Positions 231 through 17,803 of a DNA stretch of 19,651 nt are shown piece after piece; position 1 is the first letter of the stretch; every line of letters begins with the position of its first letter. Source of the stretch: Anaerolineae bacterium (GTDB lineage: Bacteria > Chloroflexota > Anaerolineae > SpSt-313). The translations under genes and the position numbers were made by a program. The DNA lies in the NCBI GenBank assembly GCA_034436375.1, contig DAOTVS010000329.1, positions 1-19,651 on the forward strand, in the 5' to 3' direction. The notes beneath the pieces are model-generated. The model saw only the letters and a program-made list of their open reading frames with translations, did not search any database and was not told the DNA's origin.

Positions 231-3200
231 CTATCTTCTGACAACCACCACCATTGTCAGATCATCCGCCTGGGGTGCGCCGCGCACAAAGCGGCGCACC
301 GCCCGGCCGATGGCATCCATCAGCCCATTGGCGTCGCCGGCCGTGGCTGAGCGCAGCGCCGCCTGCAGGCCCTCCTCGCCGAACTCGCGCTCCTCCGGGT
401 CGAAGGACTCGGTCACCCCATCGGTATAGAGCGCCAGCGCATCGCCGGGCTCGAGGCGCACCTGTAGCTCCTGAAAGGCCGGACGCTCGATGACCCCCAG
501 GGCGATGCCACGGCAGACGAGCCGCTCCAGCCGCCCATCGCGCCGGCGCAGGTACGCCGGGTTGTGCCCGGCCGAGGCCAGCGCCAGCTCACCCGTCTGC
601 GTGTCGAGGATGCCGTAGAACAGGGTGACGAACATGCCCGAGCGACTGTCGGCGCGCAGGAGGTCGTTGACGCGGCCCAGGGTGTCGGCCGGCGAGCGGC
701 CCTCGAGGGCGATGGCGCGCATGACGTTGCGCGAGAGGGCCATAAAGAGCGCTGCCGGCACCCCCTTGTCGGAAACATCGGCGATGACCAGGCCCAGCCG
801 CTGTGCGGCGAGGGGAAAAAAGTCATAGAAATCGCCGCTGACCTCACGCGCCGGCTGCGAAAGGGCCGCAATGGACCAGCCTGGAATCTGGGGGCAACTC
901 TCTGGCAGGAAGGTCGCCTGGATGCGGCGGGCGACCCGCAGCTCCTGGGCCATGCGTTCGCGCTCCAGCGACTCGCGGTACAGCCGCACATTTTCAATGG
1001 CGATGCCCGCCTGGTTGGTCAGGCCGGAAAGCAGCGCGATGCGGCGCTGGGAAAAGTGGTGCGGCTGCCCCACATAGTCGACGACCATGATGCCCTGCAC
1101 CTCGTCCTGAGAGCGCAGCGGCAGCCCCAGGGCCGAGCGGATGCTGAATGCCTCTGCCAGGGCGGGCGGCACCAGTTCATACAGATCGGCCCCCTCCGCC
1201 GCCAGGGGCGCCCCCGCCTCGCGCACCCGATCGAGCAGCGGAAAATCTCCCACCGAGAGGCTCAAGCCTGCCATACGCTTGCGTAATGGCTCGCTGAGCC
1301 CATAGGCGTGTGAGGGCACATAACGGCGCCGCTCCCCATCCCACAGGAAGATGCAGGAGCGGTCCACCCCCGTCAGCATGGCGGTCAGCCGCACCACACC
1401 GGCCAGGATCTCGTCCAGGTCTTTGGTGCGCCCGGCCAGCTCCGCCACCTGCAGCAGGGCGGTAGAGACCCAGGCCTCCTCACGCTGGGCAATGTAGAGG
1501 TGCGCGTTCTGGATGGCCATGGCCGCCTGGTTGGCAATGCCGCCGAGGACGGCGCGGCGGCCGCCGCTCAGGGGCTGGGGTTCCCGGTAGCCCGTCGCCA
1601 AGGCGCCGATGGTCTCGCCGCCTGCCCGCAGCGGGATGGCCACCCCGGCAGCCAGCCCCAGCGCCGCCTGCGCCTCGCGCCCGGCCTCGGTTTCCGCTGT
1701 CAGGTCCAGCGGAGCGCTGCCAGCTTCCAGGGCCTCAGCCAGGTTGGGCGCCACCTCGCGCAGCGGGCGCCCGAGCAGGTGCTCGCGCGAGGGGTTGCCC
1801 AGGCCATGAGCGCGCAGGACGCAAAGCTCGCCCGTATCCTCATCGCGCAGAAAGATGAAGGAGCGGTCGGCGCCCACCAGCAGGGGCACCAGGCGATTGG
1901 CCGCATCCAGCACTTCATCGAGGCCGGTCAGGTTGGCCAGGCTCTCTGCCACCTGCAGCAGCGCCGTCGAGACCCAGGTCTGCTCCTGCTGGGCGGCGTA
2001 GATGCGGTTATCTTCGATGGCAATGGCCACCTGGTCGGCCAGCGTCTGCAGCACATAGATATCTTCGCTGCCGAACGTATCGGGGCGGTCGCTCTGCACG
2101 TCGAGGATGCCCACCAGGCGCTCATCCACTTTGAGCGGCACTACGGCCTCTGAGCGGGTAGCTTCCAACCCCTCAATCAGCCGGTAGCGGGGCTCGCCAT
2201 GCACCTCGTTGATCACGATGGCTTCGCCCGTCTGCCCGACCCAACCGATCAGCCCCTGCCCCGGGGCCACCCGCACCCCCTGTTCGTTGAGCAGGGGGCT
2301 GGTGCTGGCCTGGAAGCGGATCTCTTGCGAGGCCGGATCGATGGTAAAGATCTGCACGTGATAGTAGCCAAAGGCCTCACGGATCAGGGTAACGACCCGG
2401 GAAAAGAGCTGGTCCATGCCCAAAATCGCCACAACCTGCCGGCTCACCTCGCCCACGGTCGCGACCTGGCGCGCGCGCCGCTGGGCTGCCTGGTAGCTGC
2501 GCGCATTTTGGATGGCCATGGCCGTCTGGTTGGCAAAGGTGGCGACGGTGCGCAGATCATCGCTGCTGAAGGCATTGGGCCGGCCGCTCTCCACGGTCAG
2601 CAGCCCAATCATCTCCTCCGCCGCCTGCAGGGGCACCCAGAGGGCGGCGCGGAAGCGGTGGTCGCCGGCTGACGGGGCAAAGGGCAACGAGTCGCGCTCG
2701 GCGTCGCGCACCAGGAGGGGAGCCGGGCCCTTCTTCACCCACTCGATGAGCTGCGGGTGCGGGGCAGAGGCGCCCCCGGTGGCAATGGCCGGCTCGATAT
2801 GCTGGCGGCGGGCGTCAAAGAGGCCCAGCCAGAAGCGTTGCGGCCCGAGCACTGCGGTTGTGTGCGCCTGCAGCAACTGGCAGAGCGCCTGCACGTCGAG
2901 CTTGCTGGCCAGGAGGGCCCGGCTAAAGGCGTTGAGCGTGGTCAGGTCGGCCACACGCTCACGGGCGTGGTTGAGGGTCATGTTCAGGCGGCGCAGCAGC
3001 TCGCCGACGGCCAGCAGAAAGAGGCCCAGCAGGCCAAGAGCCAGAGGATCCAATATGCGGTAGGCGATAGCCAACACGGCCGCCAGGGGCAGCGGCAGGA
3101 GCTCGACGGCCAGGGAGTAGACCTGGATCGCGCGCAGAAAGCGCTCCAGACCGGCGCTCCCCTCTGCCAGTGCAATGCGCAGGCTCCAGCCCAGGTGATC

Positions 3201-3767
3201 GCCGAGGAACCAGGTGAGGCACAGGGCCAGGAGCGGCGGCAGATCATGCCATTGCAGGGTGGTTGGAGCCCAGCGCCCGCCGAGCAGACCATAGACCTGC
3301 CCGGCGGCCAGCAACACCAGGGCGTTTAGGCCGCCGCTGAAGAGGGCCAGCCGCAGCCGTCTGCCGCCCGAAAAGCTGGACGGGCTGGCCTCATGATCCG
3401 GGTGATGGTCGGGCGAAGGGTTTGCCTGGCTTGGCGCGGGGCGCAGGCGTATCGCCATGAAAATGAGCCCGCCCAGGGTCGCCACCCAGGCCCCACCCGA
3501 GGGGCCCATCACCAGCAGGGCGGCGAGCACGGCCACGCCTGCCAGGCTGTGGGTGACCAGATGCGCGACCCGGAATCCCTCGACCTTGAGCCCTATGGCC
3601 AGGATGAGGAAAAAGAGCGCCGGGGCCACCTCCAACCGCTGCTGCGTGGCCATGGTCGAGGCGATGAGAATGCCCCAACCAACCAGGCCGATGCCCGCCT
3701 CATAGGCCAGGGTGGCCCCTGGTCGGGTTGGTGCAGACGCCGGCGAGAGAGTCAGTCGCTTGCCCAT
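231..3767 (-). CDS. Membrane-anchored multi-GAF PP2C-family serine phosphatase (RsbU/SpoIIE-like). It has 4 N-terminal TM helices, 4 GAF-like domains each ending in an ANQxAMAIQNA-type helix, and a C-terminal PP2C/SpoIIE domain (SGDFYDF...DVSDKG...FVTLFYGILD...LYTDGVTE).
   Basis: ORF 231..3959 (minus strand) in the ORF track. C-terminal motifs typical of the SpoIIE/PP2C phosphatase family. Repeated GAF-like segments. The ORF's upstream 64 codons overlap the STAS gene. Start is placed at ATG 3767 (MGKRLTL...), which precedes the first TM helix and overlaps the STAS stop by 16 nt. No strong SD sequence, so the start is uncertain. Confidence 0.8.
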   Translation of the reverse strand: MGKRLTLSPASAPTRPGATLAYEAGIGLVGWGILIASTMATQQRLEVAPALFFLILAIGLKVEGFRVAHLVTHSLAGVAVLAALLVMGPSGGAWVATLGGLIFMAIRLRPAPSQANPSPDHHPDHEASPSSFSGGRRLRLALFSGGLNALVLLAAGQVYGLLGGRWAPTTLQWHDLPPLLALCLTWFLGDHLGWSLRIALAEGSAGLERFLRAIQVYSLAVELLPLPLAAVLAIAYRILDPLALGLLGLFLLAVGELLRRLNMTLNHARERVADLTTLNAFSRALLASKLDVQALCQLLQAHTTAVLGPQRFWLGLFDARRQHIEPAIATGGASAPHPQLIEWVKKGPAPLLVRDAERDSLPFAPSAGDHRFRAALWVPLQAAEEMIGLLTVESGRPNAFSSDDLRTVATFANQTAMAIQNARSYQAAQRRARQVATVGEVSRQVVAILGMDQLFSRVVTLIREAFGYYHVQIFTIDPASQEIRFQASTSPLLNEQGVRVAPGQGLIGWVGQTGEAIVINEVHGEPRYRLIEGLEATRSEAVVPLKVDERLVGILDVQSDRPDTFGSEDIYVLQTLADQVAIAIEDNRIYAAQQEQTWVSTALLQVAESLANLTGLDEVLDAANRLVPLLVGADRSFIFLRDEDTGELCVLRAHGLGNPSREHLLGRPLREVAPNLAEALEAGSAPLDLTAETEAGREAQAALGLAAGVAIPLRAGGETIGALATGYREPQPLSGGRRAVLGGIANQAAMAIQNAHLYIAQREEAWVSTALLQVAELAGRTKDLDEILAGVVRLTAMLTGVDRSCIFLWDGERRRYVPSHAYGLSEPLRKRMAGLSLSVGDFPLLDRVREAGAPLAAEGADLYELVPPALAEAFSIRSALGLPLRSQDEVQGIMVVDYVGQPHHFSQRRIALLSGLTNQAGIAIENVRLYRESLERERMAQELRVARRIQATFLPESCPQIPGWSIAALSQPAREVSGDFYDFFPLAAQRLGLVIADVSDKGVPAALFMALSRNVMRAIALEGRSPADTLGRVNDLLRADSRSGMFVTLFYGILDTQTGELALASAGHNPAYLRRRDGRLERLVCRGIALGVIERPAFQELQVRLEPGDALALYTDGVTESFDPEEREFGEEGLQAALRSATAGDANGLMDAIGRAVRRFVRGAPQADDLTMVVVVRR

Positions 3768-4129
3768 GTGTGAGCCGACCCACCAGGCGGCGCCGCAAAG
3801 GATGATACTGCCTGCTGGCAAGAATCCCACAGCTCGAAAACCTGGTCGAACCCCGCCAGTGCGAAAATCTGCCGCACCCTTGGCGCCAATGCGCAGAGCT
3901 TGAGGTCGCCCTTCTGCTCGCGCGCCTGCCGGGCCCCCACCAACAGGGCGCGCAGACAACTGCTCGAGACATAGGTCACTGCGGCCAGGTCGACGACCAG
4001 CCGAGTCTGCCCCCCGGCGAGGGCCTGCCGCAGCAGTTCCTCCAGGCGCGGTGAGATGGCGGCGTCAATGCGTCCCTCTGCTGCGATGACCAGGACCCCA
4101 TGGCGTTCGATCTGCCTGAGCTCGCTCAT
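3752..4129 (-). CDS. STAS-domain anti-sigma-factor antagonist (SpoIIAA/RsbV-like)
   Basis: MSELRQIERHGVLVIAAEGRIDA...LVVDLAAVTYVSSSCLRALL...GFDQVFEL is a typical STAS fold signature with the conserved serine region. ATG at 4129 shares one nucleotide with the TGA of the upstream kinase gene (TGATG), suggesting translational coupling. Confidence 0.8.
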   Translation of the reverse strand: MSELRQIERHGVLVIAAEGRIDAAISPRLEELLRQALAGGQTRLVVDLAAVTYVSSSCLRALLVGARQAREQKGDLKLCALAPRVRQIFALAGFDQVFELWDSCQQAVSSFAAPPGGSAHTWASD

Positions 4130-4545
4130 CAATGCCTCCTCTTGTACAGGCGGAGCTCGTTGCCCTCGGGGCCACACCGAAAGACGAGGCGGTCGGTCAG
4201 CTTGCGCATAAAGTAGATGCCCAGGCCTCCGACCTGGCGTTCTTCCAGGCTGCATGTTGTATCGGGCTGAGGCGCCTCGTTAGGGTCAAAGGGGCGGCCC
4301 CGGTCGCGCAGAATCACGACCAGATCATCGCCCTCGATCTCGCAGCGGATGAGGATCTCGCCCGCTACGCCCGGTCCATAGGCATGCTGGATGATGTTGG
4401 TGCAGGCTTCATCGACCGCCATCTGCAGCTCGAATGCCCGCTGCTCATCGAGCCCCAGCGCGGCGGCGGCAGCCGTCACAAACTCGGCGATCTGCTCCAG
4501 GTTGGCCGGGTCGCTCGCGACCGCCAGTTCCAGGGGTTGCGCCAT
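4129..4545 (-). CDS. Anti-sigma regulatory factor, serine-protein kinase (RsbW/SpoIIAB-like GHKL ATPase)
   Basis: 138-aa ORF (minus strand) in the ORF track. Motifs ...AVDEACTNIIQHAY... and ...GGLGIYFMRKLTD... are characteristic of HATPase_c_2 anti-sigma kinases. Located between two STAS genes. Confidence 0.8.
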   Translation of the reverse strand: MAQPLELAVASDPANLEQIAEFVTAAAAALGLDEQRAFELQMAVDEACTNIIQHAYGPGVAGEILIRCEIEGDDLVVILRDRGRPFDPNEAPQPDTTCSLEERQVGGLGIYFMRKLTDRLVFRCGPEGNELRLYKRRH

Positions 4546-4560
4546 GTCGTGTCCCTTGCG

Positions 4561-4698
4561 GGCTATCAGCTATCGGTTGTCGGCTCTGGCCTCCATTCAC
4601 GCGACACTTGATGGTTGCGGGGGCCGCTATCGGCAGAGTTGGGCCAGCAAGCATCATCGCCGATGGAATAAGCTGATAGCTGATAGCCGATAGCTAGA
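4561..4698. repeat. Structured intergenic element. A 14-bp inverted repeat (GGCTATCAGCTATC at 4561-4574 / GATAGCTGATAGCC) flanks ~100 nt. It carries 6-7 copies of the hexamer GATAGC/GCTATC (tandem GCTGATAGCTGATAGCCGATAGCTAG at 4672-4698).
   Basis: Read directly from sequence. Lies between the STAS-2 stop (4694) and the kinase start (4545) inside a minus-strand operon. Confidence 0.6.
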
Positions 4699-5029
4699 AA
4701 CTACCTACCGCATCAACCGTCGTATCATAGCCTGCAAAGAGGACATCGAGCCCCGCCAGGCTCAGCACACCCTGGATGCGCTCGGGCACATTGGCCAGGC
4801 GCACGTCGCCACGGTTCCAGCGGCGCGACTCTTTCAGCGCGGCCACCAGCACGCGCAGGCCCGCGCTGGAAAGGTATTCCAGCCCCGTCATGTCGACGAC
4901 GATGTGGAAACGCCCCTGGTTCAGGATTCCCTGCAGCGCGTCTTCCAGGCGCGGGGCGCTGGCGCTATCGACACGTCCGCTGACCTCGACGACATCTACG
5001 CGTTTGAGCTGGCGAGTCTTGACTTCCAT
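4694..5029 (-). CDS. Second STAS-domain anti-sigma-factor antagonist
   Basis: MEVKTRQLKRVDVVEVSGRVDSASAPRLEDAL...HIVVDMTGLEYLSSAGLRVLV...GLDVLF shows the STAS fold. Start ATG 5029 is preceded by GAGGAGG. The ORF-track ORF (4694..5137) extends further upstream without an SD sequence. Confidence 0.75.
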   Translation of the reverse strand: MEVKTRQLKRVDVVEVSGRVDSASAPRLEDALQGILNQGRFHIVVDMTGLEYLSSAGLRVLVAALKESRRWNRGDVRLANVPERIQGVLSLAGLDVLFAGYDTTVDAVGSF

Positions 5030-5078
5030 AGGGCCTCCTCTGCCTCCAGGCAGAAAACTGTGAACCATAAACCGTAAT

Positions 5079-5112
5079 GCGTGATCCGTAATGCACGGAT
5101 TACGCATCACGC
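5079..5112. promoter_or_regulatory. 34-bp near-perfect palindrome GCGTGATcCGTAAT-gcacgg-ATTACGcATCACGC. A direct repeat of CCGTAATGC (5072 and 5087) precedes it and a small hairpin CTGCCT-CC-AGGCAG (5041-5054) follows.
   Basis: Read directly. It overlaps the stop codon of the ligase gene (5100-5102) and lies 50-80 bp upstream of the STAS-2 start. Locally AT-richer than the surroundings. Confidence 0.5.
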
Positions 5113-6635
5113 ACTTTCCGTGCGCCTTCCGCCGCACCTTCGACCAGCTTGGCCGTGACGATGCCCAGACCGATGATGAGCCAGAAGAGCGTCAGCATGT
5201 GCGAGAAACTGAAGAGCGTATGATCGAACACGCCGCCGGCCAGCCCCGCCGTGATCGACACCGCCGGCCCGATGATCCAGGGGGCCAGGGTGGGGTCGGC
5301 GCGGCCATGGCGCCAGGCGATCCAGGTGATGATGTAGAAGAGCGCCAGGGTGACCAGGTATGCGGCCAGGCCGATGACGCCCGTCTCTTCCGTAATCATC
5401 AGGTAGAGGTTCGATACGCCCACGTAGAGGTCAATATCGGGCGCATCTACAAAGCCGACCCCCAGCCAGGGGTAACGCTGGATGAGTATGAGTGCATCCT
5501 TGTACTCTCCAAAGCGCATCTGCGTGGCCCGGTCCTGCCCCTGCACGCCCTGCTCAAAGTGAGCCACATAGGCCTGTGTTTGGGGTAAGAGCAGGAGCAG
5601 CAGCGCCACCAGCGCAAGGGCCAGGAGCGCCTTGCGATAGCGCCCGATCAGCGACAGGATGGCAATGACTCCCACTGCCAGGCCCGCCAGCGATCCGCGT
5701 GAATAGGTCAGGAAGAGACACACCCCCGCCGAGGCGGCGGCTGCCAGCAGCCAGAGGCGCGGTATGAATGGCCGCCTCTCAAAGAGGTGCGGCGTTGCCA
5801 ACCCGAGGGTCAACGCCATGAGGGCGCCCAGGACGTTAGGGTCTACCGAGGTCGAGATGGCCCGCTGCGGCAGGCTCGGATCATCCTCGATATAGCGCAG
5901 TACGTCGGGCCCAGACGGGTAGCGAAAGATGCCCAGCGCCGAAAGCAGGCGGGTGCTCGTGGCGGGCGGCAGAAAGTAGAGCACAATGCCGATTGCCCCA
6001 GCCAACGCGCCGCCCAGGATCAGCCAGGTCGTCAGCTGCTGCACCTGGCGGCGTGTGCGCACCAGGTTCAGCACGGCAAAGAAAATCATAATGCCCAGGG
6101 GAATCTCGGCGAACTGGCGGAGTGCGGTAGCTGTCAATTGGGCATGGCCCAGGCCTGCGGCAAAGGCGCCCACCGTCGCCAGCGCGAAAATGGCCACAAA
6201 GGCCGAAATAGGCGAGGAAACCCAGCGCCCCTGCCGCCCGGTGGCGATCCGCGCTGCCCACACCAGGAACAGCATCCCCAGGGCCAGGTTCAGAAAGGTC
6301 GGCGAAAAGCCCACATTCAGCGGCAGAGTGCCAAAGGGCAGCAGATAGATGACCGCCACCGTGACCATGAGCGTGAAATCGGGGCTGCGCAGCATCAAAA
6401 GCGCCGCCGCCACGCCCACAACCAGCGCAGCCGCATAAAGCGGCGTCGCGAACGCCACCAGGGCCCCGGCCAGGGCGCCGGCAACCAGGCAAATGGCCAG
6501 CGTTACCAACAGAGACCCGATATCGCGACGCGCCAATACACGCTGCAGGACCAAAACGAGCGGCAAACCATTCACTCCTATTGTGAGGGGCAATACGCTG
6601 CCGGAAACACGCCCCGTGTCACGAAAGTGTAGCAC
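5100..6635 (-). CDS. O-antigen ligase / Wzy_C-family polytopic membrane protein
   Basis: 511-aa ORF with ~12 predicted TM helices. Motif ...LTYSRGSLAGLAVG... and a large periplasmic loop are typical of the O-antigen ligase/polymerase (RfaL/Wzy_C) family. The ORF track starts at a GTG without SD, so the true start may be internal. Confidence 0.65.
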   Translation of the reverse strand: MLHFRDTGRVSGSVLPLTIGVNGLPLVLVLQRVLARRDIGSLLVTLAICLVAGALAGALVAFATPLYAAALVVGVAAALLMLRSPDFTLMVTVAVIYLLPFGTLPLNVGFSPTFLNLALGMLFLVWAARIATGRQGRWVSSPISAFVAIFALATVGAFAAGLGHAQLTATALRQFAEIPLGIMIFFAVLNLVRTRRQVQQLTTWLILGGALAGAIGIVLYFLPPATSTRLLSALGIFRYPSGPDVLRYIEDDPSLPQRAISTSVDPNVLGALMALTLGLATPHLFERRPFIPRLWLLAAAASAGVCLFLTYSRGSLAGLAVGVIAILSLIGRYRKALLALALVALLLLLLPQTQAYVAHFEQGVQGQDRATQMRFGEYKDALILIQRYPWLGVGFVDAPDIDLYVGVSNLYLMITEETGVIGLAAYLVTLALFYIITWIAWRHGRADPTLAPWIIGPAVSITAGLAGGVFDHTLFSFSHMLTLFWLIIGLGIVTAKLVEGAAEGARKVRDA

Positions 6636-6660
6636 AGGGCAGAGGGGTTGACAAATGTGT

Positions 6661-6685
6661 AGGGGCAGGCCTCAGGCCTGCCCCT
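6661..6685 (-). terminator. Perfect 11-bp GC-rich hairpin AGGGGCAGGCC-TCA-GGCCTGCCCCT, followed on the minus strand by ACACATTTGTC
   Basis: Read directly. Located 24 nt downstream of the small minus-strand gene (stop at 6709) and upstream of the ligase gene. Plausible intrinsic terminator or transcriptional insulator. Confidence 0.45.
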
Positions 6686-6708
6686 ATACACCGTCCCACC
6701 GCAGGCGC

Positions 6709-6933
6709 CTAACGAGTAGGGGCGGTTTTCTCTTCCATCACCCGCACGGCCGCGATTGCCGCCGGGTTGATGATGTTCATGCTGCCGGGCGGCGCCTCCG
6801 CCACATCATACACTATCACGGGCCGGGTGCCTGTCATCGCTTCTGAGATCTGCGTCGACACCTGCCCCGGCTTGCCCTGGATCACCCCGTTGACCTCGTC
6901 CCCCGATACGAGGATGAATTGTACCTGAGCCAT
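6709..6933 (-). CDS. Small hypothetical protein (74 aa, no Cys; MAQVQFILVSGDEVNGVIQGKPGQV...)
   Basis: ATG 6933 preceded by GCAGGAGGCGAG (AGGAGG SD). Part of ORF 6709..7041 (minus strand). No recognisable family. Confidence 0.5.
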   Translation of the reverse strand: MAQVQFILVSGDEVNGVIQGKPGQVSTQISEAMTGTRPVIVYDVAEAPPGSMNIINPAAIAAVRVMEEKTAPTR

Positions 6934-7060
6934 CTCGCCTCCTGCACAAGCCAAGGTCCTCACGGGCGGCGCTCGCTTTCCGCCGTACCCCGCTGCCCGT
7001 CCACTGGCCTTCTGTTTCCCTCCCCGCAAAGAGTGTGCCACGGCTTATAGTCAACGACAC

Positions 7061-7089
7061 TTGACGTTTCGCCGCCATTGAGGTATTCT
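7061..7089 (+). promoter_or_regulatory. Sigma-70-like promoter for tRNA-Sec: -35 TTGACG (7061-7066), 17-nt spacer, -10 TATTCT (7084-7089). The -35 sits in the inverted repeat GTCAA-N6-TTGAC (7050-7065).
   Basis: Hexamers read directly. 12 nt separate the -10 from the tRNA 5' end. Confidence 0.4.
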
Positions 7090-7101
7090 AATGCACGGTA
7101 C

Positions 7102-7198
7102 GGGGGTGGTTGAGTCCTGGTGGGCTCCGCGGTCTTCAAAACCGTCTGAGGGGCGCTGCTGAGGCGTCCCTGGTGGGTTCGACTCCCATCCACTCCCG
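7102..7198 (+). tRNA. selC: tRNA-Sec (selenocysteine), anticodon UCA
   Basis: Folded by eye. 8-bp acceptor stem (GGGGGTGG 7102-7109 / CCACTCCC 7190-7197, one G-U wobble). 6-bp D-stem with 4-nt D-loop (7112-7127). Anticodon loop CTTCAAA with TCA at 7136-7138. ~24-nt variable arm with a 6-bp stem (7150-7155 / 7165-7170). 5-bp T-stem with GTTCGACTC loop (7173-7189). Discriminator G7198. CC(A) is partly encoded. The 8/5 architecture plus the UCA anticodon is diagnostic of bacterial tRNA-Sec. Confidence 0.8.
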
Positions 7199-7267
7199 CC
7201 TTTTCGACCCTCGTTGGTGGACCCCTGACTGTGCCCCGGGTTGAGGTTCGGTTTTTCTGGGCGCTCC

Positions 7268-7296
7268 TTGACTTTTTCCGCGAAGGGTAGTACATT
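7268..7296 (+). promoter_or_regulatory. Candidate promoter: -35 TTGACT (7268-7273), 17-nt spacer, -10 TACATT (7291-7296), upstream of small ORF 7369..7626
   Basis: Read directly. A weak -10 element. Confidence 0.3.
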
Positions 7297-7368
7297 TGTT
7301 CTAATGACATCAGGCGCCTGCCGGGTCATTCTTTGCAGGCGTGTTGCATAGACGACGGAGGACGAAAC

Positions 7369-7626
7369 GTGGAGTCAAGCCCGCCCCGGACGCACATTTT
7401 TTGGCGAGAGGATATCCGGAACGTTCTCAAGGCGATTGACCAGGCGAATGTCGCGTTGACGGCGCACCTTCCGGTGGCCCAGGTCGCCATCTACCGCGCG
7501 GGTTTTAGTGCGGCCTTGCAGGCGGTAGCGACCAGTTTTGATGTGAGCCTGGACACTCCGCCGCCGCGTTCCTCTATCGAGTTGTTGCCGCCCGATGCGC
7601 CCCGCTGCTCTGTACCGGGGGAATAG
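7369..7626 (+). CDS. Hypothetical small protein (~85 aa)
   Basis: GTG 7369 preceded by GGAGGA (7 nt upstream). Part of ORF 7333..7626 (plus strand). No family recognised. Convergent with the SPFH gene. Confidence 0.35.
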   Translation: MESSPPRTHIFWREDIRNVLKAIDQANVALTAHLPVAQVAIYRAGFSAALQAVATSFDVSLDTPPPRSSIELLPPDAPRCSVPGE

Positions 7627-7659: not shown

Positions 7660-9003
7660 TTAGTGTGTGCTGATACGAATATCTCTGGCGATCTGTTCCA
7701 GAGTGCGGCGCCATGCCTCCCATTGCAGGGCGTCTGTAGGCATTTCGTTGGGCGACAGGGCCTCTTTGTAGGCGGTCGCCAGGGTATCCAGCGCCTTGGC
7801 CCACGCTTCGGCGCGCGCTGTGTCGATCTTTTGCACGGCCTCACCCTGGCGGTCTGCCACCCAGGTCCCTGTCGCCGCCTGCACGACCTCCTTTTCTGGT
7901 TGCACATTTTCGATGATGATCCTGTCGATCATCGTGCCGAAGGTCTGTGCGGCACGCCGGGCGCGCTGCAGCACCTGGCGCTCGAGATTGCGGTTATTCT
8001 GGGCTGCGCGCAGTTGGTTAAGATCCAGCCCCGCCACGATCGTGTGCACGCTCTCCGCCACGACGCTGTGTACGCCTCGCTGCCAATCGGGCATGAGCGA
8101 GTCTACCTTTTGGATCACGCTTTTTTCGGTATCATCAAAGGAGCCTGCCGGCGCTGGTTGATCCGGCCCCTGCTCCTGTTGCGAGCCCCTGCCTTTGTTG
8201 GCGTCCTCCGAAGCGCCCCCGCGAGCCGCGAGCGGCGAGATGTTAATGCGATAGGTCACCGCCATGACGATCGTGGTTGAGATCATGTCCTGCGTGAGGA
8301 CGTTGGGAAAGGTCCACTCCTCCTGCCGTGGCCGCAGGTCATAGATGCGTTTGATCTTCTCGGTGTGCTTGACTCCGGTCAGTTTGGCGGGGCCGCAGAT
8401 GCGCGTCTGTTTGCTCCCCTCCTCGAAAATGACGGCATTGTAGGGCTTGATGACGACCGTGCGCGGCGCTGTGGAGGATTTCTCCTTCATCGTGCTCCTG
8501 CCATCCTCGACCGTCTCTGTGACGTCGGCCACGCCGCGCAGGATCCTCCATTGATCCAGCATAGCGGCCCGCAGGCCTTTGTAAGAGCCGCGCGCAGCGC
8601 CGACCGTGAGCGTAAACATGATCAAGCCCGAAAGCGTGGCCAGGATGAGCCCCGGCAGGCCAAAGAGCCACAGGACAGCCGATAGCCAGATGGCGATGAT
8701 CGCCCCCGCCCACCTGGCCTGCGCGCCCCTGGTGCTGGAAAGGCTTATCGCGAGGAGGGCGCAGAAGAAAGCGAACGCGACAGCCCAACCAGGGAGTGGA
8801 GCGGCTTGGGCCTCGTCGGGGGCGTCCATGGTCGTGGCCTCTGCTCTCGCGCTCGGCATCGGGGGGGCAGTTGCGGTGTGAGCAGCAGCCACAGTTTGCG
8901 TTGGGCCAGGGGGTGTTGCGGGCGCGGGCTCTTGCCACAGTGTGACGATCACCGCGATGGCGAGCATCGCAACTGTGATGAGCACGATACGCGTTGTCTT
9001 CAT
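7660..9003 (-). CDS. SPFH/band-7 (stomatin/prohibitin/flotillin-like) domain membrane protein with an extended multi-TM N-terminus and a Pro/Ala-rich linker
   Basis: 447-aa ORF. SPFH-like core (VVIKPYNAVIFEEG...RICGPAKLTGVKHTEKIKRIYDLRPRQ...ISTTIVMAVTYRI) followed by a coiled-coil-like C-terminus. The N-terminus has 1 + 3 predicted TM helices. AGGAGA SD 10 nt upstream of ATG 9003. Confidence 0.6.
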   Translation of the reverse strand: MKTTRIVLITVAMLAIAVIVTLWQEPAPATPPGPTQTVAAAHTATAPPMPSARAEATTMDAPDEAQAAPLPGWAVAFAFFCALLAISLSSTRGAQARWAGAIIAIWLSAVLWLFGLPGLILATLSGLIMFTLTVGAARGSYKGLRAAMLDQWRILRGVADVTETVEDGRSTMKEKSSTAPRTVVIKPYNAVIFEEGSKQTRICGPAKLTGVKHTEKIKRIYDLRPRQEEWTFPNVLTQDMISTTIVMAVTYRINISPLAARGGASEDANKGRGSQQEQGPDQPAPAGSFDDTEKSVIQKVDSLMPDWQRGVHSVVAESVHTIVAGLDLNQLRAAQNNRNLERQVLQRARRAAQTFGTMIDRIIIENVQPEKEVVQAATGTWVADRQGEAVQKIDTARAEAWAKALDTLATAYKEALSPNEMPTDALQWEAWRRTLEQIARDIRISTH

Positions 9004-9294: not shown

Positions 9295-10464
9295 CTACCG
9301 CACCTCCACCACTTGGCCCGTCTGCGACGACTCGACAATGGCCGTTACGATCTGCGCCTGTTTGAGCCCGTCCACATGCGTGGGGAGTGGTCCGTTGCCC
9401 TGCCAGCCCTGGGGCTCCAGAGTCCCCTGCAGGATCGAATTGATCACCGGGCCGATGAGCGACATGAGGTTGCCACCGATGCCGGTGCGCTCTTCCAGAG
9501 CCGGCGAGAGCTGCCCACCGCCTGCCGCCAGTTGGCCAGTGCTCGGGTCCGGCCGGTGCAACAGCGCGGCCACGTTCACACCCATGGCCAGCAGGGCGTT
9601 CTGATGCGCGAGCAGTTGCTCGGGCGTTGTGCTGCGGGCCACATTGGCGCGCCAGCCCGAATCGGTGCCAAAGCCGCCGCGCTTGTTGTAGATGAGCGTG
9701 CCCTCGCTGCCCGAGAAGCACTGGTAGAACTCGACCAGCCCGTCCATGTGCTTGATCCACTCAGCCTTGACGCGCACCTTGAGCCCGCTGTCAAAGGTCA
9801 AAAAGGCATCGTACACGTCGGGGGTAAAGCCCAGCACCTGCTGCTGCGCAAAGGCATAGACCTCCGCCACCTCTGCGGGCGCCAGGTACCAGCGCAGGAG
9901 GTCTACCACGTGGCTGAGCAAAAAGTGGGCGGTGGAGGAGCCCGATGCCCACTCTTTGCTGCGGTTGCCCCACAGTGCAAGCGGCACGCTGATGTTGTCG
10001 TCGAGGCGCGACTCGGCGTGCACCACGCGCCCCAACAGGCCCTGCTGAATGACATAGTGGGTGGCGATATCCAGCGGCGCCGCCCGGTTGGCAAAGTTGA
10101 TGTAAAAGCGCGCGCCGTGCTTTTCCACCGCCTCGTAGATGGCCTCGGCATCCTCGCGGGTGGTGGCCAGGGGCTTTTCCTGGATGATATTGGGCACTCC
10201 CGCCTCAATGGCCGCCACAGTCGGCGCCCGGTGCAGGGGGTCGGGCGTGGCCACAGCCACCACATCGAGCGCATGCTTACGCAGCATCTCTTCATAGTCG
10301 GTATAGGCCTGCGCCCCCACCTCGGCCGCCACGCGCTCCGCCGCCTCGGCACGCACATCGGCCACCGCGACCACCTCGACAGCCGGATGCTGCCGGAAAA
10401 AGCGGGCATACTCGCTGCCCAGAATGCCCAGGCCGATCACACCGGCCTTGAGTTGCTTGCTCAT
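9295..10464 (-). CDS. Gfo/Idh/MocA-family NAD(P)-dependent oxidoreductase
   Basis: N-terminal Rossmann motif KAGVIGLGILGSEYARFF...VVAVADV and the family EKP motif (NIIQEKPLATT). Start ATG 10464 is preceded by GGGAGGAG. The ORF-track ORF extends to 10689 without support. A small hairpin CCCGG-CCCT-CCGGG at 9257-9270 lies downstream of the stop. Confidence 0.8.
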   Translation of the reverse strand: MSKQLKAGVIGLGILGSEYARFFRQHPAVEVVAVADVRAEAAERVAAEVGAQAYTDYEEMLRKHALDVVAVATPDPLHRAPTVAAIEAGVPNIIQEKPLATTREDAEAIYEAVEKHGARFYINFANRAAPLDIATHYVIQQGLLGRVVHAESRLDDNISVPLALWGNRSKEWASGSSTAHFLLSHVVDLLRWYLAPAEVAEVYAFAQQQVLGFTPDVYDAFLTFDSGLKVRVKAEWIKHMDGLVEFYQCFSGSEGTLIYNKRGGFGTDSGWRANVARSTTPEQLLAHQNALLAMGVNVAALLHRPDPSTGQLAAGGGQLSPALEERTGIGGNLMSLIGPVINSILQGTLEPQGWQGNGPLPTHVDGLKQAQIVTAIVESSQTGQVVEVR

Positions 10465-10688: not shown

Positions 10689-12932
10689 ATGGTTGCTAGG
10701 GAAAATGTGGCCGTCTCGGAGGCGCAGTCGGACTTGCGCTGGATGCTGGGGCAGTTGCGGGAACAGGCCGTTATGGCGGCCCTGGCTGCTCTCTATGTCG
10801 CTGGGATTCTCATCCTGGTGGCTGCGCCGCGGGCGACCACGATGGCGCAGGGTGTGTTGACGGGGTTCCTGTCTCTTATTGTGGGGGCAGCGGTATGGCT
10901 GGCACGCCGCAATCACTCTGTCTCGGCTTGGTTGATGGTGGGCGGCTGTGTGCTCGTAGTGCTCCTGACCGCGGCAGTCGAGCGGGTACCCGCGGCCGTC
11001 GTGCTGCTCATCCTGCCGGCAGGTCTGGCCGTGTTGGCGGTGGGCATTGCGGGCGGCCTCGTGACAGCGCTTCTTTGCAGTGTCCTCCTGCTCTTCCTGC
11101 CGGCGACGTCTCTGCCGGTCGGCGGGGACTTGCGCTTGGTGACCGGGCTCGCCGTCTGGGCCGTGGTGGGCATGATCTCGCTGGCGTTGCGCCTGTTGCT
11201 CACGGCCCTGGAGTGGTCCTGGGCCAGCTACCGCGAGAGCCACGGCCTGCTCGAACGTGCCCGAGACACCCACGTGCAACTCAAACAGGCACTTGCCGAT
11301 CTGACCGACGCCAACCTGCAGCTCACGCGCTTGAACCGGCTGACCCAAGCGCTCCGTCAGGCCGCCGAGGATGCGCGGCATGCCTCCGAGACTTTTGTGG
11401 CCAACGTATCTCACGAGTTGCGCACGCCCCTGAACATGATCATTGGTTTCAGCGAGATGATTCTGGATGCGCCGACTGCCTATGGCTGCAACTTGCCCGC
11501 GTCCTTGCTCGCCGATCTTGAGATTGTGCTGCGCAATAGCCAACACCTCTCCGGCTTGATCGACGACGTATTGGACCTGAGCCAGATCGAGGCCGGCCAG
11601 GTGGCACTGACCCGGGAGCGGGTAGTGCTGGCTGAGGTTGTGGATGCGGCGCTGGTGGCCGTGCGCCCTCTGTTCGAATCCAAAGGCCTGTACCTGGAGG
11701 CGGAGATTGACCCCGACCTGACCGCCTTTTGCGACCGTACGCGCATCCGTGAGGTGATCCTCAACCTGCTTTCCAATGCCGGGCGCTTTACAGAGCGCGG
11801 GGGCGCCCGGTTGCGCGCCTGGCGCGAGGGGGGTGATGCTGTGGTCAGCGTGACTGACTCTGGACCGGGCATCGCCGATGAGGACAAGGATAAGGTGTTC
11901 CGCCCCTTTCAGCAACTCGATGGCTCGCTGCGGCGGCGCTATGGCGGCTCGGGCCTGGGCCTCTCTATCAGCAGGAGCTTTGTGGAGATGCATGGCGGCA
12001 AAATGGGCTTCGAGAGTGAGCTCAGCGTCGGCACAACCTTTTACTTCCGCTTGCCGATAGAGCCGCCGACGCCAATCGTTGGGCCGCCCACACGCTGGCT
12101 AAGCGCTGAGTGGCACTATGAGGAGCGGACGCGACGCCCGCTGCCTGCGGCGCTGGCGGTGCGCCCCCGTTTTGTGCTGGTGGAAACGGGCACCTCGCTG
12201 CGGCGCCTGCTTGCCCGCTACTGGGATGAGGTCGAGCTGGTGCCGGCCGGCAGCCTTGAAGAGGGGCTGCACGAGTTGGCACGTGTGCCGGGGCAGGGGC
12301 TTTTGGTTAACGATACACGCGTAGGCGAGGTGTTGCAGCGCCTCAGCGCCTCCGACCTGCCTTACGGCACGCCGATTATGGTCTGCTCGGTGCCTGGCCT
12401 GGCTGAGGCAGCGCATGCCTTGGGGGCACTGCAATACCTGGTCAAGCCGGTGGCGCGTGAAGACTTGCTGGGGGCGCTGGACGACCTTTCTTTGGTAGGA
12501 AAGACCGTACTGATCGTGGATGATGAGCCCGATGCCCAGAGACTTTTCTGGCGGATGCTCTCTACGTCGGGGCGTGGCTACCGGGTTCTCACTGCCGGCA
12601 ATGGCCGTGAAGCCCTGTCGATCCTGCGCGGTGACCAGCCCGATGTGGTATTGCTGGATCTGGTCATGCCCGATATGGACGGTTTCCAATTGTTGGCGAC
12701 AATGCGCAATGATCCGGCCCTTTGCGCCATCCCGACGGTAGTCATCTCCGCACAAGATCCGACGGGTCAGCCTATCATCACTAACACCTTGACTGTTACG
12801 CGCCGCGGGGGGCTTTCGGCGCCGCAGCTCCTGGCCTGCTTGCAGGGGCTGACTCAGATCCTCTCGACGGGCGGGCCATCTCGCGGTCCAGAGCCGCCAG
12901 CAGCGCCGAGCGACTCACCGGCTTGCGTATGA
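10689..12932 (+). CDS. Hybrid sensor histidine kinase / response regulator. Contains ~5 N-terminal TM helices, a coiled coil, HisKA (H-box VSHELRTPLN), HATPase_c, a degenerate receiver-like domain, and a C-terminal receiver domain (VLIVDDEPD...VVLLDLVMPDMDG).
   Basis: 747-aa ORF. ATG 10689 preceded by GAGGAG. Domain motifs read from the translation. Confidence 0.85.
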   Translation: MVARENVAVSEAQSDLRWMLGQLREQAVMAALAALYVAGILILVAAPRATTMAQGVLTGFLSLIVGAAVWLARRNHSVSAWLMVGGCVLVVLLTAAVERVPAAVVLLILPAGLAVLAVGIAGGLVTALLCSVLLLFLPATSLPVGGDLRLVTGLAVWAVVGMISLALRLLLTALEWSWASYRESHGLLERARDTHVQLKQALADLTDANLQLTRLNRLTQALRQAAEDARHASETFVANVSHELRTPLNMIIGFSEMILDAPTAYGCNLPASLLADLEIVLRNSQHLSGLIDDVLDLSQIEAGQVALTRERVVLAEVVDAALVAVRPLFESKGLYLEAEIDPDLTAFCDRTRIREVILNLLSNAGRFTERGGARLRAWREGGDAVVSVTDSGPGIADEDKDKVFRPFQQLDGSLRRRYGGSGLGLSISRSFVEMHGGKMGFESELSVGTTFYFRLPIEPPTPIVGPPTRWLSAEWHYEERTRRPLPAALAVRPRFVLVETGTSLRRLLARYWDEVELVPAGSLEEGLHELARVPGQGLLVNDTRVGEVLQRLSASDLPYGTPIMVCSVPGLAEAAHALGALQYLVKPVAREDLLGALDDLSLVGKTVLIVDDEPDAQRLFWRMLSTSGRGYRVLTAGNGREALSILRGDQPDVVLLDLVMPDMDGFQLLATMRNDPALCAIPTVVISAQDPTGQPIITNTLTVTRRGGLSAPQLLACLQGLTQILSTGGPSRGPEPPAAPSDSPACV

Positions 12933-14118
12933 AAGCGGCCGCCCCCAGCGATAGCGCTAGCTGCTCCTGTGGCAGGATCGTGCAGACGATCACGGGCACT
13001 CCCGTCGTCTGCGGATGCTCGCGCAGCCTACCCAGCAACTCCCAGCCGTCTATGCCGGGCAGCATCACATCGAGCACGATGATCCGGGGAGCGAGTTCGC
13101 GGGCCAGCGCAAGCGCCTGTGCGGGGTCGCGAGCGCCCATGAACGGGTAGCGGGTGCCGGCCAGGTAGCGCTGGAAGAGGTGCAAGGTATCCGCATTGTC
13201 ATCGATCACCAGCACCGCTGCCTGCTCGGCGATGGGCAACGCCAGGATGGCCTTGAAGGGCTGGGATCCGGCTTCATCGGGCACGATCGACAGGACTCCT
13301 CCTGAGAGCCCTACCAGCTGGCGGGCCATCTCCAGGTTGTCGAGCACGTCGCCTGTAGCCGGCCCCATGTCGCCGTGATGGGAGGTAGGGGTAATGCGAA
13401 TCAGCGCCTGATGCTCTTGCTCCTCGATCTCGATGCGGATCGTGCCGCCGGGCACGGCGCGAATAGCCGCGGTGAGGATGTTCAGGCAGGCCTGGCGCAG
13501 TGATGCTACCTGCACAGCTACGCGAGGCAGACCCTGCGGCAGCGCACAGTCGATTCGCACCTGCAAGGCACGGGTGAGTGGTATCACGATCTGGAGCAGC
13601 CCATCGATCAACCCCTGTACGTCCGCAGCTTCGTTGGGCAGGGTCTTTTCCAGCCATTGCAATTCTTCCTCACGGCTGGGGATGGCCTCCGCGTCGCTAG
13701 GCTCATCGCTTGCGCCATTCTCGCTCTCTTCACCCAACAGGGCATCCAGGTGCAGATCATAGTGCACGGCCAAGTAATCGGCCAGCACGCGCAAGGCCAG
13801 GCTCTCCTGGCGGCGCATCTGGCGCAGGCTCAGCCCCAGGGTTGTCGCTACCTCTTGTTGGCTGAACTGATCGACGTAGCGGTGAGTGAGTGTGCGGTAG
13901 GAGCGCCATTCGCTCGATTGCAGCGAGGCATCGGCATCCGGCTTGAGTGCCTCGATGGCTTCGATCAACACCTTGCGCAGCCTGGATGGGCTTTCCTGGG
14001 GCTGCAGGCGGAGCAGTGGCCACAGCGGGCTGGCACGAAGGGCTGCCGGATCGTAGAGGTGCAGCATTGTCCTCCGTAGCGCCCGCAGAAAGGAAACTTC
14101 GGGGGGATTCTCATTCAT
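12796..14118 (-). CDS. Atypical regulator. N-terminal sigma-70-region-4-like HTH (FSQQEVATTLGLSLRQMRRQESLALRVL), a central degenerate GHKL/HATPase-like domain (N-box LNILTAAIRA, no H-box), and a C-terminal receiver domain (VLVIDDNADT...IIVLDVMLPGIDG...FIRKP).
   Basis: Part of ORF 12796..14505 (minus strand). Start assigned to ATG 14118 (MNENPP...), with GGAGAGG ~14 nt upstream. An alternative start at 14268 is possible. Confidence 0.6.
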   Translation of the reverse strand: MNENPPEVSFLRALRRTMLHLYDPAALRASPLWPLLRLQPQESPSRLRKVLIEAIEALKPDADASLQSSEWRSYRTLTHRYVDQFSQQEVATTLGLSLRQMRRQESLALRVLADYLAVHYDLHLDALLGEESENGASDEPSDAEAIPSREEELQWLEKTLPNEAADVQGLIDGLLQIVIPLTRALQVRIDCALPQGLPRVAVQVASLRQACLNILTAAIRAVPGGTIRIEIEEQEHQALIRITPTSHHGDMGPATGDVLDNLEMARQLVGLSGGVLSIVPDEAGSQPFKAILALPIAEQAAVLVIDDNADTLHLFQRYLAGTRYPFMGARDPAQALALARELAPRIIVLDVMLPGIDGWELLGRLREHPQTTGVPVIVCTILPQEQLALSLGAAAFIRKPVSRSALLAALDREMARPSRGSESAPASRPGAAAPKAPRGA

Positions 14119-14302: not shown

Positions 14303-15781
14303 ATGGAACCCAAGAAGCTATCGCGGCGTGATTTCCTCCGTTGGAGTGCTCTGCTGGCCGGGGTAGCCACCCTGGCAGCCTGTGCACCAGCCAAGCCGAC
14401 AGAGTTGCCCACGGTGGCCGCGAGCGCGGCGAGCGCCACCACCGCCCCCGAAGCGACGGCTGCCTCGGCCGAGCCAACGGGGACCCAGGCTGCCGAGCCC
14501 ACCACAGCCCCGGCGACCGAGGCACCCTCTTTGGCTGGCGAGATCGAGTATTTCTCCTATGATCTGGGGCCGGCCAACAAATCGCGCGAGGAGATTGCCA
14601 ATGCCTTCCAGGCGGCCAACCCCGGCAGCAAAGTCAAGCTCACGGTCCTGCCCTATGGCGATAACTGGAACAAACTGGCCGCACTCATGGCTGCCGGCAC
14701 CCCGCCTGATGTGATCTATGGCGATTTCTCCCTCCTCAAGTATGCCCTGGCCGGCCAGCTGCTCGATCTGACGGAGCAGTTCAATGCCGATCCGGTGCTG
14801 AGCAAGCCCGACCTCTTCACCATGGATATGCGTGATCCCATCCAGGCCAAGTTTGGCACATCGCATCTCTATAATCTCGTCCTGGGCACCTGGGTCCCTG
14901 TGTTGTATTACAACCGCGACATCTTCGATGCTGCCAGCCAGTCCTATCCAGACGACAAGTGGACTTGGGAGGATCTGCGGGCCGTCGCCAAGAAGCTGAC
15001 GGATCCAGCCAAGCAGCAGTGGGGTGTGCAGTTCGGTACCACCCTCGACACCGTCGGCTGGCTCTGGTGGCAGCACCAACCCAAGGATTTCTGGGCAATC
15101 CCCCAGATCTTCCCCGAAAAGACCGATTTCAACAACGAGGTTGGGCTGGACGTCTTCTCCTTCTGGTATAACCTGGGCTCACAGGACAAGTCTGCTGTGC
15201 CGTTTTCTGAGATGGGGTCTTTCCAAGCCTACGGCGCTGCCTTTGGCGCCGGCAAAGCGGCTATGGTTATTGGCGGCGATTGGGATGCCGGCTGGGGGTA
15301 CCGCGAGCTGCCCTTCAAGTGGGGCGTGACCTACCTGCCCACCGTCAAGAAAGACTACCGGCCAGCCCTCAACTGCATGGTGGCCACCTCGACCATTGCG
15401 GCCGCCACCAAGCAGCCGGCACTGGCCTGGCAGTTCGCCCGCTTTATGTCGGCGTCGACCGAAGGCCAGACCCTGATCGGTGAGGGCGCCTACGAGACCC
15501 CCGTGCTCAAGGACGTCGCCCATTCCGACGCCGTTCTCAAGCCAAGTTGGGGGGCACCGGGATATGACGTGCGCGTCAAGGCGGCGGAGTTGCCGGGGCC
15601 TATGTACTGCCCCTATCCGCTGGACATGGATCTGTGGGAGTTCCCCTCCAAGCACTTCGATCCGACCGTGCAAAAGCTCTCGACAGGCGAGATGAAGCCC
15701 GAAGAGGCTGTGGCCTATCTCGACAAAGAAGGCACCCCCTACTTTGCCGAGATGACGAAGAACATGCCGCCCATCAAGTGA
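14303..15781 (+). CDS. ABC transporter substrate-binding lipoprotein (extracellular solute-binding family 1 / CUT1-type) with a Tat/lipoprotein signal (RRDFLRWSALLAGVATLAAC)
   Basis: ATG 14303 preceded by AAGGAG (11 nt upstream). Signal peptide with twin-arginine motif and lipobox Cys. A Thr/Ala/Pro-rich linker follows. The remaining ~440 aa are typical of family-1 SBPs. Confidence 0.85.
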   Translation: MEPKKLSRRDFLRWSALLAGVATLAACAPAKPTELPTVAASAASATTAPEATAASAEPTGTQAAEPTTAPATEAPSLAGEIEYFSYDLGPANKSREEIANAFQAANPGSKVKLTVLPYGDNWNKLAALMAAGTPPDVIYGDFSLLKYALAGQLLDLTEQFNADPVLSKPDLFTMDMRDPIQAKFGTSHLYNLVLGTWVPVLYYNRDIFDAASQSYPDDKWTWEDLRAVAKKLTDPAKQQWGVQFGTTLDTVGWLWWQHQPKDFWAIPQIFPEKTDFNNEVGLDVFSFWYNLGSQDKSAVPFSEMGSFQAYGAAFGAGKAAMVIGGDWDAGWGYRELPFKWGVTYLPTVKKDYRPALNCMVATSTIAAATKQPALAWQFARFMSASTEGQTLIGEGAYETPVLKDVAHSDAVLKPSWGAPGYDVRVKAAELPGPMYCPYPLDMDLWEFPSKHFDPTVQKLSTGEMKPEEAVAYLDKEGTPYFAEMTKNMPPIK

Positions 15782-15789
15782 TCGCCTAT

Positions 15790-15824
15790 GGTGGGAGGTG
15801 GGGCGGGCTGCCCCATCTCCCACC
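15790..15824 (+). terminator. GC-rich stem-loop GGTGGGAG-GTGGGGC-GGGC-TGCCCCAT-CTCCCACC immediately 3' of the SBP gene
   Basis: Inverted repeat read directly. No T-tract. The position (between the SBP and permease genes) is typical of intra-operon attenuators that set SBP:permease stoichiometry. Confidence 0.3.
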
Positions 15825-15909
15825 ACCACCACCGGCGGCCGGCCGGCAGGGATGCGCCTGGCCCGTGGCGACGCCCTCTGGCCGGTTGCTGGAGCTCGAG
15901 GAGGCAAGT

Positions 15910-17744: not shown

Positions 17745-17803
17745 ACGCACACCAGATTTTGAGTCTTTGAAGCTTACTCTTAAATGAAGAATGGATATAA
17801 GCT

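Follow-up and report, generated by a model that had tools for sequence, protein, structure and literature searches.

The Chloroflexi were already counted among the phyla with selenoproteins in 2006 (PMC1794560). In single-cell genomes of Anaerolineales, selenocysteine (Sec)-containing formate dehydrogenases were found together with SelB, and the distribution of the Sec machinery among these genomes is patchy, A. thermophila having SelB without a Sec-containing formate dehydrogenase (Sec-FDH) (PMC4959059). Marine Chloroflexi possess an HdrBCA-MvhD-FdhBA cluster in which FdhA contains Sec (PMC5736913). An (8/4) tRNA-Sec with a bulged 51a was described in Chloroflexi and Actinobacteria, and two further kinds of tRNA have to be distinguished from tRNA-Sec: selC* tRNA-Cys, defined by a U73 discriminator and CysRS identity, and the allo-tRNAs, which have a 12-bp acceptor branch of the 8/4 or 9/3 type (Mukai et al., PMC5389517). 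The corresponding gene of Escherichia coli K-12, selC (b3658; 3,836,222-3,836,316), is located between yicJ and setC, ~75 kb from selAB (3,758,017-3,761,249) and ~2 Mb from selD (1,846,965).

Here, a 19,651-bp stretch of DNA (hereafter the window) from an uncultured Anaerolineae (Chloroflexota) bacterium was investigated. It contains one tRNA-Sec(UCA) gene, at 7102-7198, with the canonical 8/5 fold and the stand-alone location known from E. coli. Based on its sequence and on its relatives, this gene is very probably a functional, monocistronic selC with its own promoter, whose aminoacylation and decoding we infer from the characterized systems.

Detection and Fold of the tRNA-Sec Gene

A single tRNA was called by ARAGORN in the whole window, a tRNA-SeC with anticodon tca at 7102-7200, an end that takes in two C beyond the discriminator. 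With cmscan, RF01852 (tRNA-Sec) was the sole Rfam match above the gathering score in the window, covering 7102-7197 and the full model (1-91); it scored 71 bits, where 47 are required (E = 4.9e-13). The initial annotation had placed a tRNA-Sec(UCA) gene at 7102-7198 and had named a tRNA detector as the check on it; both programs call the gene at this locus.

The cloverleaf was obtained from an unconstrained minimum free energy (MFE) fold of the RNA. Its energy was -51.6 kcal/mol, compared with -39.8 +/- 3.6 in shuffles (z = -3.3), and none of the 200 shuffles folded as stably. Every architectural element that had been proposed, namely the 8/5 branch, the 6-bp D-stem with its 4-nt loop, the long variable arm, the UCA anticodon and G73, has its match in this fold (table 1). 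Together, the acceptor and T-stems form an acceptor branch of 13 bp that is of the bacterial 8/5 type (8 + 5 bp), and the linker between the acceptor stem and the D-stem is 2 nt long. The 3' CCA is absent from the gene, in which G73 is followed by CC-TTTT. The element is thus confirmed as a bona fide, standard bacterial tRNA-Sec(UCA) gene and is no chance match.

Table 1. Positions of selC, its parts and signals, and the neighboring genes in the window
Feature	Position	Strand	Basis
GAFx4-SpoIIE/PP2C phosphatase	231-3959	-	Pfam/gene calls
STAS	3752-4255	-	Pfam/gene calls
RsbW-like kinase	4129-4545	-	Pfam/gene calls
STAS	4694-5137	-	Pfam/gene calls
Wzy_C/O-antigen-ligase-like membrane protein	5100-6635	-	Pfam/gene calls
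Conserved 74-aa ORF	6709-6933	-	Gene calls, conservation next to selC
-35 hexamer TTGACG	7061-7066	+	Promoter scan; TTGACN at equivalent position in related selC loci
-10 hexamer TATTCT, 17-nt spacer	7084-7089	+	Promoter scan; conserved in relatives
selC, tRNA-Sec(UCA), 97 nt	7102-7198	+	ARAGORN, Rfam RF01852, MFE fold, covariation, E. coli selC architecture
selC acceptor stem, 8 bp	7102-7109 with 7190-7197	+	MFE fold
selC D-arm, 6-bp stem, 4-nt loop	7112-7127	+	MFE fold
selC anticodon arm, 5-bp stem, 7-nt loop	7129-7145	+	MFE fold
selC anticodon TCA, U35-C36-A37	7136-7138	+	Loop CUUCAAA; ARAGORN, MFE fold
selC variable arm, 9 bp	7149-7171	+	MFE fold
selC T-arm, 5-bp stem	7173-7189	+	MFE fold
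selC discriminator G73, unpaired	7198	+	MFE fold
Weak terminator-like hairpin CCGGGTTGAGGTTCGG then TTTTTCTGGG	7236-7261	+	Terminator scan
85-aa ORF	7369-7626	+	Gene calls
SPFH/Band_7	7660-9003	-	Pfam/gene calls
GFO/IDH/MocA oxidoreductase	9295-10464	-	Pfam/gene calls
Hybrid histidine kinase	10689-12932	+	Pfam/gene calls
Response regulator	12796-14067	-	Pfam/gene calls
ABC transporter (TAT-signal solute-binding protein + two permeases)	14303-17744	+	Pfam/gene calls
Uninterrupted MttB-superfamily protein	17804-19258	+	PF06253 E = 3e-45

Conservation and Covariation among Relatives

A species-representative genome collection and metagenomes were scanned with a search pattern that was constant in D-arm, anticodon arm and T-loop core. 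The core pattern matched 12 genome loci (L005-L016), all in Anaerolineae, Anaerolineales or Chloroflexota metagenome-assembled genomes (MAGs), and ARAGORN called tRNA-SeC at 12 of 12. The 41 matching metagenome loci are known by pattern match alone. The three parts held constant by the pattern (D-arm, anticodon arm and T-loop core) could not vary among the matches, and their invariance is therefore no evidence. The tRNA sequence itself was identical in L018 and L019, two contigs that represent the same population in other samples, that is, in three independently assembled samples.

Among 30 distinct homologous sequences, 96.9% of the cells were paired. Eight pairs, seven of them belonging to the variable arm and one to the acceptor stem, had changed on both sides, and the covariation score of 0.134 (0.072 in column shuffles) was reached by none of 500 shuffles. 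In the control in which the 3' partners were slid, pairing fell to 47-59%. The acceptor and T helices were paired throughout (100%) in these homologues, acceptor pairs 4, 5 and 6 varying and yet staying paired. Moreover, G73 was invariant, in all 34 distinct sequences as well as in the 30 homologues, and the first two T-stem pairs (G-U and U-A), which the pattern had left free, did not vary either. Because the variation among relatives is compensatory, the tRNA fold appears to be under selection.

Promoter and Transcript End

The gene had been proposed to have a promoter of its own, TTGACG-N17-TATTCT. This promoter was found by the scan, the -10 hexamer stopping 12 nt short of the 5' end of the tRNA, and in the region 6700-7600 two promoter-like sites were observed where 0.2 were expected. 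Of 45 distinct regions upstream of the tRNA at related loci, 32 had the pattern TTGACN-N16-18-TANNNT 5-15 nt before the tRNA, compared with 0.03 expected from shuffles; among the other 13, several had different -10-like motifs in comparable places. In L011, the closest relative, TTGACC-N17-TATCCT stands at equal distance even though the upstream sequence is not alignable. With the scan match and the position conserved in these 32 regions, the claim of an own promoter is therefore well supported. A second promoter-like site, TTGACT-N17-TACATT, was noted at 7268-7296 (+), between selC and the 85-aa ORF.

Downstream of the gene, the terminator scan found one site, where 1.4 were expected by chance, and the fold of 7199-7262 was not more stable than shuffles (z = +0.86). 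A clearer hairpin followed by a T-run lies just 3' of selC in several relatives. The hairpin of the window may perhaps mark the end of a monocistronic selC transcript.

Gene Neighborhood in the Window

The gene map was based on Pfam and on gene calls for public contigs (table 1). Pfam agrees with the earlier placement of selC between an O-antigen-ligase locus and an SPFH gene, both on the minus strand. Two small ORFs that had not been noted before also flank the tRNA gene, one of 74 aa on the upstream side and one of 85 aa on the downstream side. The 74-aa ORF has an AGGAGG ribosome-binding site, and seven or more relatives (L011, L025, L031, L035, L049, L058 and L062) have it next to selC, with 64-69% identity; a comparison with L011, in which the substitutions follow a third-position pattern, confirmed its frame, and neither Pfam nor NCBIfam gave a match to it. 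The 85-aa ORF could not be assigned to a family either and was seen in no contigs but those of this population.

A partner-switching module (GAFx4-SpoIIE/PP2C, STAS, RsbW-like kinase and STAS) adjoins the Wzy_C protein on the minus strand (231-6635). The upstream block, from the 74-aa ORF to the GAF-SpoIIE gene, has kept its synteny with selC: it recurs in at least eight divergent relatives, the proteins being 47-74% identical, and in L011 the upstream gene order is that of the window (64-73% protein identity). The relatives with the syntenic partner-switching/Wzy_C block include L011, L024, L031, L049 and L062.

On the downstream side, the genes for the hybrid histidine kinase and the response regulator converge, and their 3' ends overlap by 137 nt (12796-12932) in the public-contig calls. 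The MttB-superfamily protein scored 156 bits with TIGR02369 against a cutoff of 525, and its gene has no in-frame TAG. Together with the ABC transporter genes, which directly precede it, it lies in what looks like a non-pyrrolysine quaternary-amine methyltransferase locus (14303-19258).

Selenocysteine Genes in the Window and in Relatives

SelA, SelB and SelD domains were not detected in the main ORFs of the window, and tblastn with E. coli SelA, SelB and SelD gave no match to it at E <= 1e-6. The in-frame-TGA read-through candidates of the window were all rejected as shadow frames of Pfam-supported genes; one TGA-containing ORF, at 6806-7078 (-), does not share the reading frame of the conserved 74-aa gene. 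Domain search, tblastn and read-through scan were thus all negative, in line with the statement of the initial annotation that these 19.6 kb contain neither selA, selB or selD nor any obvious selenoprotein gene. That annotation had also stressed the isolation of the tRNA gene from sel genes. The isolation holds within the window; the weight given to it was overstated, the arrangement being common and E. coli K-12 having it likewise. An exact-protein look-up identified the window as a metagenome contig (ENA ERZ27247228, k141_921345) and found the same population in several other samples (ERZ27247235, JGI 3300009503 and 3300027863, SRR5248875 and SRR6049666), with no contig extending beyond the window.

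In relatives, genes of Sec metabolism were found beside the tRNA. At L009, which is identical to the metagenome loci L041 and L059, a 634-aa ORF located 186 nt downstream of selC passed the selB model TIGR00475 with 351 bits against a cutoff of 242 (selC-selB pair at 1515-3702). This selB was found by tblastn with E. coli SelB, a 999-aa shadow ORF covering the opposite strand, and no selA was found after it within 8 kb. At L012, a TGA-interrupted fdhA is directly beside selC, with the TGA at the catalytic position (NNVDHCARL-U-HSPTV). The domains found in its two halves are Molybdop_Fe4S4, Molybdopterin and Molydop_binding, and the joined sequence, in its U->C version, scored 868 bits with TIGR01591 against a cutoff of 666. 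An hdrA-like gene beside the same selC has a TGA at FPTLDCST-U-ILGPKMMD and is preceded by a CCG-domain gene. The same TGA-containing fdhA was next to selC at L045 (783-2783). A SECIS-like hairpin after the UGA of the L012 fdhA was no better than in shuffles (z = -1.0).

At the L012 locus (523-7431 in Betzabe_MAG057), the genes adjoining selC are, in all, hdrA(U) and fdhA(U), the CCG-domain gene and one for an Fe-S protein, and the in-frame TGA of both selenoprotein genes stands at the known catalytic or cluster position. Gene calling or picking the longest ORF splits this fdhA into ORFs of 135 and 550 aa and also puts a 691-aa shadow ORF of the opposite strand in place of hdrA. At the high-GC loci of relatives, the longest ORF is sometimes a shadow frame. 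When sel genes were sought in relatives by ORF length, the candidates proved to be MoeA, ABC-transporter, methyltransferase and aminotransferase genes. An AIR-synthase-like ORF at L060 with a weak match to E. coli SelD was not counted as selD, because it scored below the curated cutoff of every family that it matched, selD, thiL and hypE included.

In the complete chromosome OZ252150.1 (L007, 646-6571), selC has two moeA-type molybdopterin genes, one of them fused to a PBP-like domain, and an M50 peptidase gene on one side, and a tRNA cluster (tRNA-Phe, tRNA-Gly and tRNA-Cys) on the other. Such a link between selC and molybdenum cofactor genes would fit the use of formate dehydrogenase. Since selB and the UGA-containing fdhA and hdrA adjoin a tRNA of the same core in relatives, the clade can be said to decode UGA as Sec, and the earlier reading that the organism of the window does so is strongly backed by these gene contexts.

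Two types of selC contig were noticed in one MAG. JPAS_maxbin.107 includes both the selB-linked contig (L009) and a contig of the window type (L011), with GC of 0.677 and 0.688 and a tetranucleotide correlation of r = 0.97, and their tRNAs differ in the variable arm only. Contigs of both types are also present in metagenome Ga0116161. OZ252150.1, the sole complete chromosome matched, had a single match to the core pattern. It is unlikely, in our judgment, that the window-type selC (the one with the 74-aa ORF, WzyC and partner-switching genes) is one of two paralogues in some Anaerolineae, with a selB-linked gene as the second copy; the co-occurrence of L009 and L011 is explained equally well by a bin in which two related populations are mixed.

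Synteny Breakpoint and Alternative Explanations

Homology with L011 ends exactly at the 3' end of the tRNA (7198/7199). Where the sequence of a relative reaches far enough downstream (L011/L035/L049, L031, L058 and L062), a GH2 beta-galactosidase gene follows selC, and the window instead has the 85-aa ORF, the SPFH gene and the GFO oxidoreductase gene. So sharp a break, beside an upstream block that remains syntenic, would suit the idea that the 3' end of selC is a site of integration or recombination and that the downstream block, from the 85-aa ORF through the SPFH and GFO oxidoreductase genes onward, is an inserted island. In enterobacteria, selC is a classic site of island insertion. However, the main downstream ORFs scanned included no integrase or mobile-element gene, no att-like second copy of the tRNA 3' end occurred within the window at <=3 mismatches, no sharp compositional shift was seen in the window, and the downstream genes are of an ordinary, housekeeping type. 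An island is therefore extremely improbable here, and, with neither an integrase nor an att-like repeat found, we would read 7198/7199 as an ordinary rearrangement breakpoint. The island explanation concerns in any case the context of selC, and not the identity of the tRNA.

The reading as a functional selC could be challenged in two ways. On the one hand, selA, selB and selD may have been lost from this lineage, leaving an orphan selC as a decaying remnant or as a serine-inserting UGA suppressor. The lack of any sel or selenoprotein gene in the window would be in keeping with such a loss, as would the fact that no contig of the population is longer than these 19.6 kb, and patchy Sec machinery does occur in Anaerolineales, A. 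thermophila and its SelB without Sec-FDH being an example (PMC4959059). A relic is nevertheless highly unlikely, considering that no stem is disrupted and that three independently assembled samples have the same tRNA, that the promoter has been retained, that the variation among relatives is compensatory, and that selB and UGA-containing fdhA and hdrA stand beside the same tRNA in relatives. On the other hand, the gene might encode a look-alike, either a selC* tRNA-Cys(UCA) or an allo-tRNA inserting Ser or another amino acid at UGA; these share the long variable arm, the long D-stem with a tetraloop and sometimes UCA, and they are false positives in tRNA-Sec searches (PMC5389517). The chance of this is negligible: the discriminator is G73, invariant in 30 homologues, against the defining U73 of selC*; the branch is a 13-bp 8/5 one, against the 12-bp 8/4 or 9/3 branch of allo-tRNAs; and both groups were reported from other phyla (PMC5389517). 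Having weighed these explanations, we retain the functional selC, and selA, selB, selD and selenoprotein genes presumably lie elsewhere in this organism's own genome.

Proposed Function and Comparison with Known Systems

In the scheme that we propose, selC would be transcribed from its own sigma-70-type promoter (7061-7089) and the precursor would be trimmed at both ends, CCA being added after transcription because it is not encoded in the gene. By analogy with characterized systems, SerRS would charge the tRNA with serine, the long variable arm and G73 acting as identity elements, and SelA would turn the Ser into Sec with selenophosphate provided by SelD. SelB would then bring the Sec-tRNA to in-frame UGA codons followed by a SECIS hairpin, and the 13-bp 8/5 acceptor branch would steer the tRNA to SelB and not to EF-Tu.

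The finding is correct but ordinary, since it is normal for selC to be located apart from the other Sec genes, and its relevance is mainly at the level of annotation. The use of Sec in Anaerolineales, the 8/5 fold of tRNA-Sec and the stand-alone selC were all established already, and therefore no open question is touched. What the gene does is to indicate that selenocysteine is probably used in this uncultured population of Anaerolineae. In its genome, genes interrupted by UGA, such as fdhA or hdrA, should therefore be read through, and not be taken for split genes or pseudogenes.

Compared with annotated E. coli selC, folded by the same procedure, the gene of the window has the same architecture (8-bp acceptor stem, 6-bp D-stem with a 4-nt loop, 5-bp T-stem, long variable arm, UCA anticodon and G73), and both genes stand alone, flanked by unrelated genes, that of E. 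coli being far from selAB and selD. In contrast, the stem sequences differ (mean column identity of 82% in a 4-way alignment), the variable arm is 5 nt longer in the window, and the 3' CCA is encoded in E. coli only. The selC genes of the Anaerolineae and Chloroflexota MAGs (L005-L016, e.g., OZ252150.1 and JAKPJZ010000205.1) are much closer, with identical D-, anticodon and T-arms and a nearly identical acceptor stem; they differ from that of the window by compensatory changes in the variable-arm sequence and in the downstream neighborhood, and in some of them selC has selB, fdhA(U)/hdrA(U) or moeA as a neighbor, which is not so in the window. With the (8/4) bulged-51a tRNA-Sec, the gene has the phylum Chloroflexi, the function and the UCA anticodon in common, whereas its branch is the canonical 13-bp 8/5 one, the 5-bp T-stem being regular and free of a bulge. 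Finally, selC* tRNA-Cys and allo-tRNAs resemble it in the long variable arm, the extended acceptor stem and the D-stem with a tetraloop, but selC* has U73 and allo-tRNAs have an 8/4 or 9/3 branch, whereas the selC of the window has G73 and 8/5.
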